Source: Vermamoeba vermiformis (lineage: Eukaryota). From it: a stretch of DNA of 20,000 bases. This document shows positions 8,516 to 20,000 of the stretch, one piece after another. The stretch lies in the NCBI GenBank assembly GCA_045837725.1, contig JBEWZL010000235.1, forward strand, positions 421,450-441,449. The letters are read 5' to 3'. Under the pieces are notes generated by a model. That model worked only from the letters and a program-made list of their open reading frames with translations. It was not told the DNA's origin and ran no database searches. Position 1 is the first letter of the stretch. Each line of letters starts with the position of its first letter. The translations under genes and the position numbers were made by a program.

Positions 8516-9144
8516 TCAAGAACCAAAACCGTAGAGTGTTCTGCCTTGTCTCTTGAGCGAGTACACGACGTCCATTGCAGTCACGGTCTTGCGCTTTGCG
8601 TACTGATAAAACTGTTAGGGTACAATATTTCGTCACTTGGCTAAATTAAGATGTGCACGAATTTGAATTGAGAAGTGATTGTTTGGTGTTTTTTGCACCT
8701 TAACGCTCCGATTATTGTGCAATCTTAAACTTTCTTGTTTTGAATGAAAAGCTAAGTGTATTTTAGCGTACGCACGCGGTCACCATACTTCCTTCAAAAA
8801 ATTTGGCGTTCCATTCACAGTATTGTAATTTCCTGGTCTTAAATTGACAGAGGACACCTACTTCAGTGTAAGTCACGGCGTCACGCACAACCTTCTCCAA
8901 GAACACGTGCAACACGCCGCGCGTCTCTTCGTAGATCAAGCCGCTGATTCTCTTCACTCCTCCACGACGCGCAAGTCTTTTAATCGCGGGTTGGTAACAT
9001 GAGTGATTGATTCGCGGTATAGCTGTTAAACTCAGATTAGAGACGGAATTGCACTGGAAGGTTGCGTACTCTTCTTCTGCGCTTGACACCGCCTGTTCCG
9101 ATGCCTTTCAAGCCAAGACCTTTGCCTTTACCTATTCCTGACAT
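8516..9144 (-). CDS. H4: Histone H4, divergent variant, 3 exons; apparent 1-nt frameshift (possible pseudogene or sequence error)
   Basis: Exons 9144-9070 ([25 protein letters not shown]), 9022-8862 (...[43 protein letters not shown]) and 8602-8516 ([28 protein letters not shown]). Exon 2 is 161 nt between two phase-0 introns, one base short of staying in frame. Confidence 0.92.
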
Positions 9145-9267
9145 TATTGTTATGTGTGGTCGCTACTTCGTTTTGTTGTTTGGATTGACATTCGCTCCAA
9201 ATTTGGTAAATATGTTTTCAAAGTGATGTTCAACGTTCGTTATCTTCAAAAAAGTGAATATTGTGTT

Positions 9268-15216: not shown

Positions 15217-15415
15217 TTGCTGTACTACACGCTCGTCGTGTAATTGTAAATATTTACGCGAATAAACTTCACTTTTTTGAATGAAAACTCCTATTTTTCT
15301 GACCTTTTTCTGACGCTAATAAAGCACCACCGACAGATTCTGTTCTTTTCAGCTAAAACAAATACGTCTTCTCACACCAATACCTCAAACCTTATTATTT
15401 AGCAACTTTCATCTA

Positions 15416-16361
15416 ATGGGCAATACTCAACCTTCTACGTAAGTATTCGACGAGGGCAATGCCATCCCTTTTTTTTTTGCTTGTTGTTTCTTTTTCTGAT
15501 TCTGTTTTATAATATATTAGAGAAATTGCGCAAGCAAATTGTCCTCTCGTGCGTTTAGTTGAAGATGTTTTTGTTATCGTATTACGTAATATCCAATTGC
15601 GTGATTTTATTTCATTGATGTCAACGTGTAAATTATTTTATTACCACCGTCTAGGCTCTGTAAGTTACTTTTATATCATGATCACCCTTTTACAGACAGT
15701 TTTAATTTTAATTCGATTTTTTAGAACAATTATTTTTGGGCTCAATTCTGCACCCAAGTTGCGGGCAGTATTAATAACCTCTTAATGAACGTGCAACAAG
15801 GCCGTCGCTTCACTATGAACGGATCCCATCGACTTAAAAACGCCGATCCTGCCAACGGATAAAACGATTATCGAGCAATTCAATTTCCGTTCAGAGCTCG
15901 AAAAGTATTTCATCCTGATCGTCAATCGTCTGCGCCTTCAATCGCTGTTCAATCTCAAGCCGCCATATGCGTACCTTGCTCTTCCAGCAGTAACAGTTAA
16001 TGCAGTGTCCTCGAGGTGGCCCCGTCCTTGGACCAATCCCAACAAATCGCAACAACAATATGCGCTCGATTATTACTATTTCGTTGATTTCTTCGGAGGC
16101 AATCCGACCCTACTTTCGCCCTTTTTACTCAACCCTGTTCTCCCCGACCAGATCGGAGGCCGAGAAATCGTTTACAACAATGCTACTAATCAACCGCCAA
16201 TTTACAACCCTTTGCAAATTTCGCGATTGGGACCAAGTCCCTATCAGCCATCGCAAATAGCCCCTTCTCTAGTCGGTGCTCATCCGAAGAACTTCAATCC
16301 AAAGCCATGGAATGGTCGTTTTCACCCTTACAACGCGAAGAGAGATCACGATAAAAAGTAA
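15416..16361 (+). CDS. F-box protein with possible N-myristoylation site; 3' structure uncertain
   Basis: First exon MGNTQPST. F-box-like segment LVRLVEDVFVIVLRNIQLRDFISLMSTCKLFY...NNYFW. The downstream ORF 15819-16361 is in a different frame and needs a frameshift or an intron to join. Confidence 0.6.
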
Positions 16362-16967
16362 TATTGTAGTAGGTGAATTCAACGGAAATTGTTAAATGAT
16401 CAAGTATGTCGTTGCCAACAAAGCGCTAAAATAAAACAAAACGAACTTTCGTAACCACAAGATGCACCATTTTCATTACTGTGCAAGGAATGGACGACAG
16501 ATTATAAATATTTATTTCAAAATAATAACACGAGTATTGCAGAGGTATGGAAAGATTACGCTCGAAAAAAGTTGATTCGTTTGTGATATTTTAAAATTAA
16601 TTAATCGATGTTTTATCCGCTAATTATTTCGTATTACGTTGCTTGAATTTATTTTTATCAGAGAACAATTATTTCGTCTCTGATCTGTTGCGTTTTTAAT
16701 TTCGCTATTGAAGTAACGAAGATAATTTCTTCAAGGGTTGGCGTAATAGTCGGCAATTTATTTAGACATATGCATAGTTGCAATAAGTTACTCACCACTT
16801 TAATAGGTTGGACGAATTACATTTTGTGAATCGCTCGGGTGCATACAAATGACACGTTTCCGGGTCAATGTGAGTCTTTTAGTACCATTAAACTGATTTG
16901 ATTCATTTTAACAATATTCTCATTAGAAGTGCCACACAGCTCCGAATTAAAAGTGCGACCGAACAAA

Positions 16968-17300
16968 ATGCATCTGGCAACGAAGACGCAATTTCAGCTG
17001 CTCGTGCTCGCCTTCTATTGCGTAATTTTTGTAGACGCAACTCTTACTACAATAACCACTTTGGATAACCCAACTGGCATTGTGACTTTTGATGATCTTG
17101 GTTTCTCGACACCGACCGACATCCGTGGCAACGTTGTATTACTAAACACTCCAGACCAGAAGATTATTTTATCAAGCAACAATGCATCAATTACTGACTA
17201 CTCTGTTGGCGCGAACGGCAATTGGGACGGATCTAAAGCTTGGTTCAACAGCACCGGTGGGTTAGGGTTAGGGAAAACGGAGAGATCTGGCGGTAAGTAG
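16968..17300 (+). pseudogene. Secreted protein gene, probably truncated by the insertion starting at about 17259
   Basis: Signal peptide MHLATKTQFQLLVLAFYCVIFVDA, then a beta-rich segment ending NGNWDGSKAWFNSTGG. The frame then reads through the telomeric tract (LGLG) and stops 7 codons later inside the hairpin region. Confidence 0.5.
17259..17273 (+). repeat. Short interstitial telomeric repeat GGG(TTAGGG)2
   Basis: Exact sequence GGGTTAGGGTTAGGG, 2.5 units of TTAGGG with the G-rich strand on +. Confidence 0.8.
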
Positions 17301-17528
17301 ATCTCGTTTGAATGTATTATTTTATTTACAATTCAATAGTCATATAATAGATTATATGTATAAATATGAGATTTCCTTATTAATTATTTAGCAGGGTTCA
17401 CGGGCGAGCGGAGCGAGCCCGTGTAAAACGCGATCCAGCAGATTTTTCCGCTGGATTTTTGGCACGAGATTCTGCGCGAACTTTACTCGTGTCATTAATT
17501 GAACAAGTAACAACAACAACTCGTGTCA
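17275..17528 (+). repeat. Array of short inverted repeats (stem-loops) plus one direct repeat
   Basis: GAGATCT/AGATCTC (17282-88, 17299-305); CATATAAT/ATTATATG (17341-58); CACGGGC/GCCCGTG (17399-423); ATCCAGC/GCTGGAT (17433-56); TGGCACGAG/CTCGTGTCA (17460-94). Direct repeat ACTCGTGTCA at 17485 and 17519. Confidence 0.8.
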
Positions 17529-17535
17529 ATATTAG

Positions 17536-17637
17536 GTAAGTTAATTTTACCAATGCAGCTTAGAAACAAAATTACGCTCCGTTTCTATTTTAAATCCGAA
17601 TCCGATCAAAGACTAACTAGCTTCGCATTCATTATAG
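17536..17637 (+). other. Probable 5'-UTR intron of the recombinase transcript
   Basis: AG|GTAAGT donor at 17536, GACTAAC branch site at 17611-17617 and TAG acceptor ending at 17637, 60 nt before the ATG. Confidence 0.55.
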
Positions 17638-17696
17638 GGTTACATTTAAACCAAGGCTGAGTGATTAGTGTATTATTTAAAAGTGAAGCTATTCTT

Positions 17697-19972
17697 ATGG
17701 CTGGTAAGTTCCGTTCTTAATTAAATTCGAGTCAGATCTTTAAATTAATTTATTTTTACGCAGAATTCAGTTGCGAGCAATGCAACAAACAATTCTCGAA
17801 GCTATCGAAGCGTAATTATCACGTGAAAGACTGCCACCCTGCCGATATTGACAGTTTAAAGTGTAAATTATGTGCGAAACAATTCCAAGCTGTTTCTTCT
17901 CGTGTTCGACATGAAGATCAAGGCTGTCCTGCGGAAAAATCAGTTGTTTTAGTCCCAACAGCAGCAATAAACACAGAGCGTGTAAATCATCGCCACAAAA
18001 AGCAAAAAAATGTTTTGTCAGCAAAATCATTGCGCATTGTTCAAATGTATCGTGAATATTTACAGCACGGAGGAACATCAGTGTATTTGCTCAGCCAAGG
18101 CAAGAAAAATCTCCAAGGTGCTAGCATTGACACTTACTCAACGCACTTGACCGATTTCCTTGCTTATATTGAGGTAAGTCAATTTGCCTGTAAACGCAAT
18201 TATAACTCTTTCATGCACAGGAGTCGCTTCCAAATGCCGACATTATTGATCACTTCTTGCGCGTGAAGACAGTTAAGGATTACATTACGTATTTGGAGCA
18301 ATCAAAGTACACGCAAAAGACTATTCTTAATCGACTACTCTCACTGGAGCGATTGTGTGGCTTGCTTGATGAAAAGTTCGACTTAATCTTCAATGGCCAA
18401 ATATCTGATCGCAAGGGCTCAACTCAGACTCGTACTGCTATCAAGACTACCTTTGATTGGGTCAAAGCGCAGGCAAAGATGACAAGTCCTATAGCAAACA
18501 AGGAAACCAAAGTTCGCAACAGTAGAGAAGCTCTCGAATCTGATAGTCGTTGGATTGCAGTTGCAAAGTTGTTTGAAAAAGAAGCTGAGCTAAAACCTGT
18601 AATGGACACTTTACTTGATAACATTGCCGCCAGCTCAGAGCCGTAAGTCAACTTAAGCATTTATTTGATTGACTAACTCAGCAATAGACCTTCAAAGAGA
18701 GATTTGCAACAGATTCAACAGTATATAATGTATTTAATGGTTATTCAACAACCACCACTAAGAGCTCAAAACTTTGACTTGATTATTCTTGATAAACTTG
18801 AATCTCCTCAAGAAGCCTCTCATAATGGAATTGTGTTTGAAGAAAAGAGTGTTATTTTACAGTACAGCAAGTACAAAACGCATGCGTAAGTCAAATAACT
18901 TTATTTATTACAATTCTAATTGGTTATTTTCAGGTCATATGGTTTTGTTAAGTTTTACCTCTCAGACACATTAGCTGGCTATGTTCGACGCTTTTACAAT
19001 GATGTTCGTCCTTGGCTATTCAAGGATAAAGCAAATGCTCCCACTATTGGTTCTTACTTGTTTGTTAATCAATATGGAGAAAGGCTACAAAGCATTGGAG
19101 CTTATTTTAAAGCAGCTATGAAGAAGTACTTTAACCAAGAGATTACTATTGGCATCATTCGCAAAGTAATGGAAACAGCAGTGAGTGAATGCTCCTTGTT
19201 TAACTCAGCTATTCGCGATAACCTGTCAATGGCAATGCTTCATGATCCAGAAACGGCACGAAGATACTATGTGTGCAAGGACAGTGAAGAGGCCAGTAAA
19301 ACAATTAATGGACAGTGGCAACAGCTGCGTCAATTCTACTCAACTCCATCATTGACGACTCCTGCAGTTGAACAAGTAGTCGAACCTGAAGCTATTGAAG
19401 TGCCAATGCAAATAGAACAGCCTATAAGTCCTATACCTTCAAATAACAACATGCGCACAGACCAATCTCCAATTGCAACAAGCGCACTTGAGCTTGTGCC
19501 AACCAGCTCTTTGTCTCAACGTTTTTCTTGGGTATCTCCTACAAAACAACTAAGTGCAGTGCCAAGCCTTGTTGCCTCTCCTTCACATGATGATAATAGT
19601 GAACAAGCAGAGGATGTTCGAGAAATTGCTAATTCAATTGCGTCAAATTTGGTGCCTGCAGCTCAGCCAACAAAAAAGCCACAGTCCGACTTTAAAACTT
19701 TGCAACGACCTGGAGATTGGCCTTGTTCTTTTTGTGGATACATCAACTTCTCTTACCGTATGGTTTGTAACCGCTGTGGAAAAGCAAAGAACAAAAGAAG
19801 TGCTTATGAAGAACATGAACAAAAACAAAAGAAAGCAAGGTTTGGCTCTGATATCACTGAAGTCCTTAGCAAGTCTACAAATAAGCAAGGTGAAGTTATA
19901 TACAAAGTAAAGTCCAGCAAAAAAGGAGAACTCTGGGTAAGAGCCAAGCACGTGCCGCAGCACTTGTTGTAA
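17697..19972 (+). CDS. Multidomain tyrosine recombinase (2 zinc fingers - integrase core-binding-like - YR catalytic - RanBP2 zinc finger - chromo-like), 691 aa, 5 exons
   Basis: Exons 17697-17703, 17764-18173, 18221-18642, 18688-18885 and 18934-19972 sum to 2076 nt, in frame, all with GTAAGT donors. Catalytic-type residues: PPLR (R 18761), KYKTHASYG (K 18875), GIIRK (R 19160) and MLHDPETARRYY (H 19241, Y 19265/19268). Confidence 0.85.
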
Positions 19973-20000
19973 AGTTTAAATCTTTGTAGTTAGTTGTAAA

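Follow-up and report, generated by a model that had tools for sequence, protein, structure and literature searches.

The window (i.e., the whole 20,000-nt stretch of Vermamoeba vermiformis DNA analyzed here) is eukaryotic sequence with short GT-AG introns, and its 3′ limit is the end of contig C235. Toward this limit, the 5′ part of a host gene (positions 16968 to 17258) is cut at a telomere seed (17259 to 17273), which is followed by an element of subfamily C (17274 to 20000) carrying a five-exon tyrosine recombinase gene of 691 codons (17697 to 19972; all on the plus strand). Farther upstream lie an intron-rich indoleamine 2,3-dioxygenase gene (PF01231; 13240 to 15216), with RNA joints at several introns, and another transcribed gene (15418 to 16361; RNA reads at 15341 to 15808), whose 180-codon frame has no Pfam match. 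On the minus strand, a frame at 8763 to 9190 contains a stretch that resembles histone H4 by eye; the piece scanned had no Pfam match at E ≤ 0.01, and the frame is possibly a divergent or split H4 gene.

When the five exons of the recombinase gene (i.e., 17697 to 17703, 17764 to 18173, 18221 to 18642, 18688 to 18885, and 18934 to 19972) were spliced in silico, they formed a 691-codon frame without an internal stop. The four coding introns are 60, 47, 45, and 48 nt long, and each of them reads GTAAGT..AG. An acceptor at 18681 was dropped, though it also keeps the frame, and homologues use the acceptor matching 18687. The intron sites are common to copies on C127, C118, C219, L093, and L094 wherever these copies cover them; the proteins of C127 and C118 are 47 to 48% identical to the window protein, and even copies at about 45% identity share the intron positions. 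The initial annotation had joined the exons into one gene, and the open frame, the four GT-AG introns, and the recurrence of their sites in homologues bear this out. The closest diverged copy is that of the metagenome contig L094 (74% identical), and comparison of the window with it (dN, 0.19; dS, 1.76) indicates that the gene is under purifying selection across copies. The window frame is the only complete one among the six assembled copies.

Two full-length, intron-free metagenome proteins (P0043 and P0054; 46 to 47% identical) run in a single frame through all of the junctions. They appear to derive from spliced transcripts; an alternative source of these intron-less relatives would be retro-copies in the genome. 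Two RNA runs labeled as the same species (X21 and X23; 126 and 174 reads placed, respectively) come from a diverged strain. None of their reads was ≥99% identical to the window and none lay over 17447 to 19786, a gap that, in a diverged strain, is uninformative on the expression of the window copy. At 17398 to 17434, 19 reads of X21 and 33 reads of X23 were placed, and their loose ends resemble the 5′ region of subfamily A. Thus, a related element appears to be transcribed in the diverged strain.

The protein opens with two zinc fingers (17772 to 17837 and 17862 to 17927), the first probably of the C2H2 type and the second of the C2HC type. The ligand pattern of this previously proposed pair is present and conserved in relatives, while the Pfam matches (C2H2 type) all scored below the cut-off. 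A predicted integrase core-binding (SAM-like) helical domain (18009 to 18523; about residues 85 to 240) was placed from Pfam matches of relatives and from the structural model of P0043. The catalytic domain (18524 to 19336) was assigned from motif order and an alignment of relatives (A3); R305, K343, R422, H449, and Y458 are present, conserved, and in the expected order, which suggests their catalytic roles, and the columns of R422, H449, and Y458 are invariant in A3. The histidine of the H-x-x-R motif is replaced by glycine (G419) in the window protein and by serine in P0043. A Pro/Ser-rich linker (19337 to 19696) follows; it is the least conserved part of the protein and is predicted to be mostly disordered (pLDDT, <50 over most of its length in the P0043 model).

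Since no single window exon matched a recombinase family in Pfam, the recombinase call rests on relatives of the window protein. Phage_int_SAM_1 scored above its cut-off in 2 of the 10 relatives scanned (P0009 and P0011). The fold evidence comes from an AlphaFold model of P0043 (47% identical to the window protein over 694 residues; mean pLDDT, 78.5), not from the spliced window protein itself. Residues 91 to 458 of this model align to Cre, its best match (Foldseek E, 2.6e-4; Z, 13.0; rmsd, 4.3; 270 aligned), and the next matches are Xer, integron integrases, and transposon integrases. Among viral models (BFVD), giant-virus and virophage recombinases matched best (best E, 1.7e-7; 12 to 20% identity). 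The modeled core-binding and catalytic fold, together with the Phage_int_SAM_1 matches, supports the earlier assignment of the window protein as a tyrosine recombinase. A profile of alignment A1 found no match among PDB sequences, PHROGs gave no support for the three YR1 proteins searched, a profile search of phage records and viral contigs returned no relative, and a word-based search among longer proteins had no match. Matches in the ESM Atlas were mainly to unnamed clusters, one of which has Phage_integrase on 15% of its members.

The RanBP2-type zinc finger recognized in the initial annotation (19706 to 19789) follows the consensus W-x-C-x2-C-x3-N-x6-C-x2-C and also passes the Pfam threshold (PF00641; 30.3 bits versus a cut-off of 27). 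It aligns to the fingers of ZRANB2 and FUS, its PDB matches are ZRANB2, FUS, and RBM10, and it keeps the FUS-type pattern of an aromatic residue followed by arginine. According to the available text of one report, the fingers of FUS and EWS retain only the second arginine and yet bind GGU and GGG RNA (PMC6384913). By analogy, telomeric RNA is a possible ligand of the window finger; the initial annotation had speculatively proposed telomeric RNA or ssDNA. Splice donors, among other sequences, contain GGU as well. The final part of the protein is a three-strand module (19850 to 19969), which is kept in relatives, is preceded by a basic patch, and is weakly chromo-like. Chromodomains were its top Foldseek rows (E, 0.08 to 0.2), while a wide structure search gave a best Z of 4.0 to unrelated folds and about 3.1 to 3.5 to chromodomain rows (VIA). 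The tail had no chromodomain match in Pfam, and methyl-lysine cage residues were not evident by eye.

The observation of an unusual architecture in the initial annotation holds, but other proteins share this arrangement. P0043 and P0054 carry every part, and P0009 and P0011 carry all except the tail; these two proteins, as well as P0007 and P0012, end at the finger. More distant relatives, including P0038, as well as P0024, P0025, and P0040, have no RanBP2 finger. As a separate observation, the segment around this finger (19709 to 19822) is 88% identical at the DNA level to subfamily A, although the overall identity of the subfamily A protein is only about 47%, and the protein sequence of the segment is only 60% identical to that of L094, the closest overall relative. 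This mismatch suggests a recent exchange of the finger between subfamilies.

The coding region is preceded by a noncoding 5′ region (17274 to 17696) with two predicted intron donors (GTAAGT; 17293 and 17536). An inverted repeat at 17399 to 17423 is built around the motif GAGCG-N-AGCGAGC, which lies 131 to 132 nt from the junction in subfamilies A, C, C′, and D and in the C264 element. This spacing is constant despite predicted introns that differ in place and length among the five subfamilies, and the repeat is a candidate binding site of the recombinase. In a second inverted repeat (17432 to 17457), pairing is kept and sequence is not: 7 of the 10 pairs change on both sides across six sequences, few in number and drawn from the same alignment from which the structure was derived. 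An Rfam search returned only three sub-threshold microRNA hairpins.

The element starts at 17274, directly after GGGTTAGGGTTAGGG. The preceding seed comprises 2.5 repeats of TTAGGG and ends in GGG. TTAGGG is the telomere repeat, and its arrays form contig ends in the genome assembly (835 matches, versus 2 for the reversed control). The same left end follows a seed on C257 and, in diverged form, on L094. The window stops 28 nt past the recombinase stop codon and the right end of the element is unassembled; the last 200 nt of the window have no other match in the assembly, and no tandem repeats were found in the window. The frame of the host gene continues through the seed into the first exon of the element, and its N terminus looks like a putative signal peptide. 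A paralogue on C257 aligns to this gene up to the cut and then extends for about 120 further residues. A host frame stops at the seed in three cases: the window, C257 (a carboxylesterase), and C276 (an LRR-like gene). For these three truncated genes, the assembly holds neither an intact allele nor an empty site, and it holds no second DNA copy of the truncated window gene. In the contigs of run X1, summed depth is about 375 before 16378 and 156 after it, and another contig diverges at this point; the segment flanking the element (16378 to 17288) may thus be present on only some homologues.

A search with the first coding exon identified at least six copies in the genome (six candidates scored). 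All six copies are oriented outward, with the junction 1.7 to 6.8 kb from the end of a contig; sequence within 7 kb of a contig end makes up no more than 10% of the assembly. Because repeats break assemblies, this nearness is biased, and no telomere is assembled on C235 itself. Contigs C127 and C231 end in telomere repeats. The left ends group into subfamilies A to D, and all 10 of those in the fetched stretches follow GGGTTAGGG, with a perfect repeat of 9 to 15 nt at the junction. The left end of L094, the only one of three metagenome loci that includes a left end, also follows GGGTTAGGG, and a related end on C264 starts after TTTAGGG alone. Left ends are base-exact within subfamilies, and their register is fixed across subfamilies that are about 45 to 50% identical in protein. 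A loose version of the subfamily C start pattern gave seven matches, four of which were chance words not followed by an element and were rejected.

On C276, C257, C231, and C219, truncated copies are arranged head to tail, with short telomere repeats between them. The order on C276 is the LRR-like host frame, a seed, 222 nt of B, a seed, 207 nt of A, a seed, and a long A copy; on C257, it is the carboxylesterase fragment, a seed, 40 nt of C, a seed, and B. Five of the six assembled copies are cut or unassembled distally, and the cut copies share 1 to 8 nt with the telomere repeat at the cut. X1 contigs contain a second flank at 17261, a tandem restart from 17289 to 17260, and a copy cut at an internal TAGGGTTA at 17642 and followed by telomere repeats. 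Summed X1 depth is about 455 to 620 over the gene and 156 over the host flank; X1 is possibly the source sample, and these depths do not equal copy numbers. The element is also present in a water metagenome (X2) at about 99% identity. Two proteins from other records (P0001 and P0051) end in translated telomere repeats, and in P0001 a subfamily A start comes next. Past the stop codon, L093 and L094 run for 80 to 130 nt of noncoding sequence and then into a different element. The junctions and positions of these copies support a telomere link far more strongly than the initial annotation had argued, and on a different basis, since that proposal relied on the RanBP2 finger.

Further families at chromosome ends (E to J) also show the fixed-left-end pattern. 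Family E carries a putative recombinase gene on the opposite strand, which also has GT-AG introns. It belongs to a second protein family (found on C231, on C16, and in E elements) that has recombinase-like motifs, an hhalign probability of 3.7% against YR1, and no Pfam or Atlas match, so that its recombinase identity is putative. The open reading frame of the J element had no match.

The elements encode a single gene (i.e., the tyrosine recombinase); a gag-like frame and an RT/RNase H are absent from them. None of 55 RT matches in the genome lies within the elements. No telomere seed was found near the 29 of these 55 RT places that were scanned for one, and their frames are of the LTR, non-LTR, or DIRS type by eye; an intron-rich Penelope-like RT could escape detection. 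The hammerhead core CUGANGA is absent from the first 400 nt of all five left ends checked, and Rfam reported no ribozyme in seven loci. Pfam detected no viral family among 40 contig-end frames, and no capsid, packaging, or replication gene was seen in these frames or in the elements, although Pfam often misses such genes.

We consider it probable, though far from settled, that this is an RT-less, intron-keeping tyrosine recombinase DNA element specialized for telomeric repeats. The recombinase would bind the left end at the junction and at the inverted repeats about 130 nt inside it, possibly through its N-terminal fingers, and would join this end to telomere-type sequence at GGG|TTA, the target being a freshly healed break or the innermost repeats. 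We saw no fixed right end, circle junction, excision footprint, empty site, or resuming host flank; mobility by means of the recombinase is therefore what we infer. The lack of a right end, a circle junction, and an empty site suggests a one-ended replacement of the chromosome tip. Given that neither a fixed right end nor a host flank that resumes was seen, the simplest form would be one crossover by which all distal sequence is replaced. The arrays would then be built as ends break, are healed by telomerase, and are invaded again; speculatively, the RanBP2 finger and the tail might help to direct the enzyme to subtelomeric chromatin or telomeric RNA. The seeds (1.5 to 2.5 repeats) are a poor fit to random insertion into long arrays; they fit capture after telomerase healing, or a donor-borne seed. 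The full combination, in which one-ended elements replace tips, truncate host genes, and build chromosome ends in repeated rounds driven by several recombinase families, with a finger that guides the enzyme through telomeric RNA, is a tentative proposal and less likely than not. Further points against the preferred reading of a recombinase-driven DNA element are the missing histidine of H-x-x-R; the fixed proximal end, distal truncations, and repeats between copies, which also match RT-made Terminon arrays as these are described in the available text (PMC6431247); and the introns and the 132-nt spacing, which antisense RNA would likewise keep.

The main rival is RT-driven end addition of the Terminon/Athena type, in which an RT acting in trans, either an unseen Penelope-like RT or telomerase, would copy antisense RNA whose 3′ end bears CCCUAA repeats onto chromosome ends, with the recombinase as cargo. 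The fixed proximal ends, distal truncations, short seeds, and tandem restarts all match the Terminon description in the accessible part of that source (PMC6431247), the 1 to 8 nt shared with the telomere repeat at cuts suits end addition, and the base-paired stems next to the junction may reflect an RNA structure. No RT was found in the elements or linked to a seed (29 of 55 places), no hammerhead core or Rfam ribozyme was detected, and the putative recombinase gene of family E, although on the opposite strand, still has GT-AG introns. The element, moreover, has no gene other than that of the recombinase, and the purifying selection on this gene would be left unexplained if the recombinase were cargo. 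The absence of an RT and a ribozyme and this selection weaken the rival, and we regard it as unlikely.

An intact, intron-rich, selected gene with nuclear-protein modules would also be expected of a domesticated subtelomeric host gene family (e.g., one encoding a telomere-processing recombinase) that spreads passively by ectopic recombination or break-induced replication, with breaks healed by telomerase. Subtelomeres exchange blocks, and some variant repeats at the junctions resemble those of terminal arrays. Such a family is hard to reconcile with copies of which five of six are distally cut or unassembled, with left ends that are base-exact within subfamilies and in a fixed register across them, and with host genes cut at unrelated sites; we judge it quite improbable. 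The least probable reading, with only a slim chance of being correct, takes the element for the terminal module of a larger virus or Polinton-like element that integrates at telomeres, its remaining genes being either eroded or located past the end of the contig. The window does end 28 nt after the stop codon, giant-virus and virophage recombinases are the closest predicted structures, and nimaviruses, according to the portion of the source available, enter telomere repeats with proteins that combine C2H2, SAM-like, and tyrosine recombinase domains (PMC10871703). On L093 and L094, however, the 80 to 130 nt past the stop codon are noncoding and lead into a different element; viral contigs and phage records contain no relative, no viral family was found among the 40 frames, and the recombinase gene carries host-type introns.

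The recombinase-driven reading can be set beside several known systems, as far as the accessible portions of the cited papers describe them. Crypton DNA transposons have a tyrosine recombinase as their sole enzyme and, in the text available, neither an RT nor terminal inverted repeats (PMC3212892), all of which the present element resembles. In that account, Cryptons have 4- to 6-bp direct repeats at both termini, whereas here there is one fixed end, located after telomere repeats. DUF3504, the recombinase type of animal Cryptons and the only Crypton type compared, was absent at E ≤ 0.5 from all 10 proteins scanned, and the finger, RanBP2, and tail modules are additional here; as long as a right end is missing, the element cannot be classified as a Crypton. 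TATE retrotransposons of trypanosomatids (DIRS order) likewise encode a tyrosine recombinase, form tandem clusters, and occupy one phase of the telomere hexamer, GGG|TTA, in the parts of the reports at hand (PMC6681497, PMC12278014). The left side of this phase is found at all 10 A to D junctions, and the right side lies beyond assembled sequence. TATEs are described there with gag-like and RT/RNase H proteins and split direct repeats, none of which is present here, while spliceosomal introns are; membership in TATE fails, as the element has no RT or gag.

Nimaviruses share the tyrosine recombinase, a C2H2 finger, an N-terminal SAM-like domain, an incomplete catalytic set, and insertion at telomere motifs, compared here by description and from partial text (PMC10871703); they have large genomes and repeats on both sides, whereas the element is about 3 kb long with one gene. 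Terminons (i.e., endonuclease-less Penelope-like elements) share head-to-tail arrays at chromosome ends, truncation at short telomere repeats, and a fixed proximal end, but the text available places an RT and hammerhead ribozymes beside the repeats (PMC6431247), neither of which was found here; the distal end of this copy is unassembled, so a distal RT could lie there. Recombinases of giant viruses, virophages, and Polinton-like viruses, a group that includes the OLV11-like family defined, in the accessible text, by PMC4642659, supply the nearest predicted structures in BFVD (only 12 to 20% identity); no viral context exists here. Other viral recombinases have other targets, as the available text has it (PMC13236599, PMC11296320). 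Tyrosine recombinases that target telomeres thus have precedents in TATE (PMC6681497) and nimaviruses (PMC10871703), insofar as these partial sources describe them. We found no comparable 3-kb, single-gene, intron-keeping element in the literature covered, which excludes most subscription papers and Repbase.

The element would offer a minimal, testable substrate for studying how a tyrosine recombinase selects telomeric repeats, as well as a way for chromosome ends to be truncated and rebuilt in a eukaryotic microbe. RT-driven arrays of mobile elements at chromosome tips are already known, and the one-ended reading, if true, would make recombinases the drivers of chromosome-end arrays comparable to the retrotransposon telomere arrays of Drosophila and bdelloids. 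The fusion of an RNA-binding finger to an integrase would be an unusual targeting device, if functional.

Several minor observations concern neighboring repeats. The starts of family I on L005 (5828 to 5900) and L032 (5758 to 5820) contain a minimal hammerhead-like core on the top strand. On L092 (1 to 2190), the 5′ part of a recombinase gene resembling that of subfamily D is replaced by sequence that, by eye, resembles a retroviral-type integrase element. Eight loci (L073 to L080; on C244, C3, C24, C182, C200, C267, C22, and C210) hold retroelements with overlapping gag-like, RT, and further frames in a DIRS/Ngaro-like layout; one third frame matches an integrase family, and no seeds are nearby. 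The whole 9.3-kb contig C228 (L050, 1 to 9300) is a single E-family element with TTAGGG at both ends in the same direction, left-end tandem repeats, a minus-strand gene for a putative recombinase, and other genes that belong to no known family; its homologue on C117 has no repeats after the same point. Another fixed-start element (GTATACAA) adjoins a large variety of truncated sequences, in most cases with no telomere seed (L021, 8099; L032, 6023; C177; C300; L092, 3676; L093, 2389; and L094, 2908), and on C300 it is followed by a 453-codon frame of no known family. Finally, the long 5′ regions on C231 (L021, 1 to 4300), C285, C162, and C177 have 23 to 36 GTAAG donors on one strand versus 1 to 3 on the other. 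These regions are chains of apparently noncoding mini-exons, and that of C231 lies upstream of the second putative recombinase gene.
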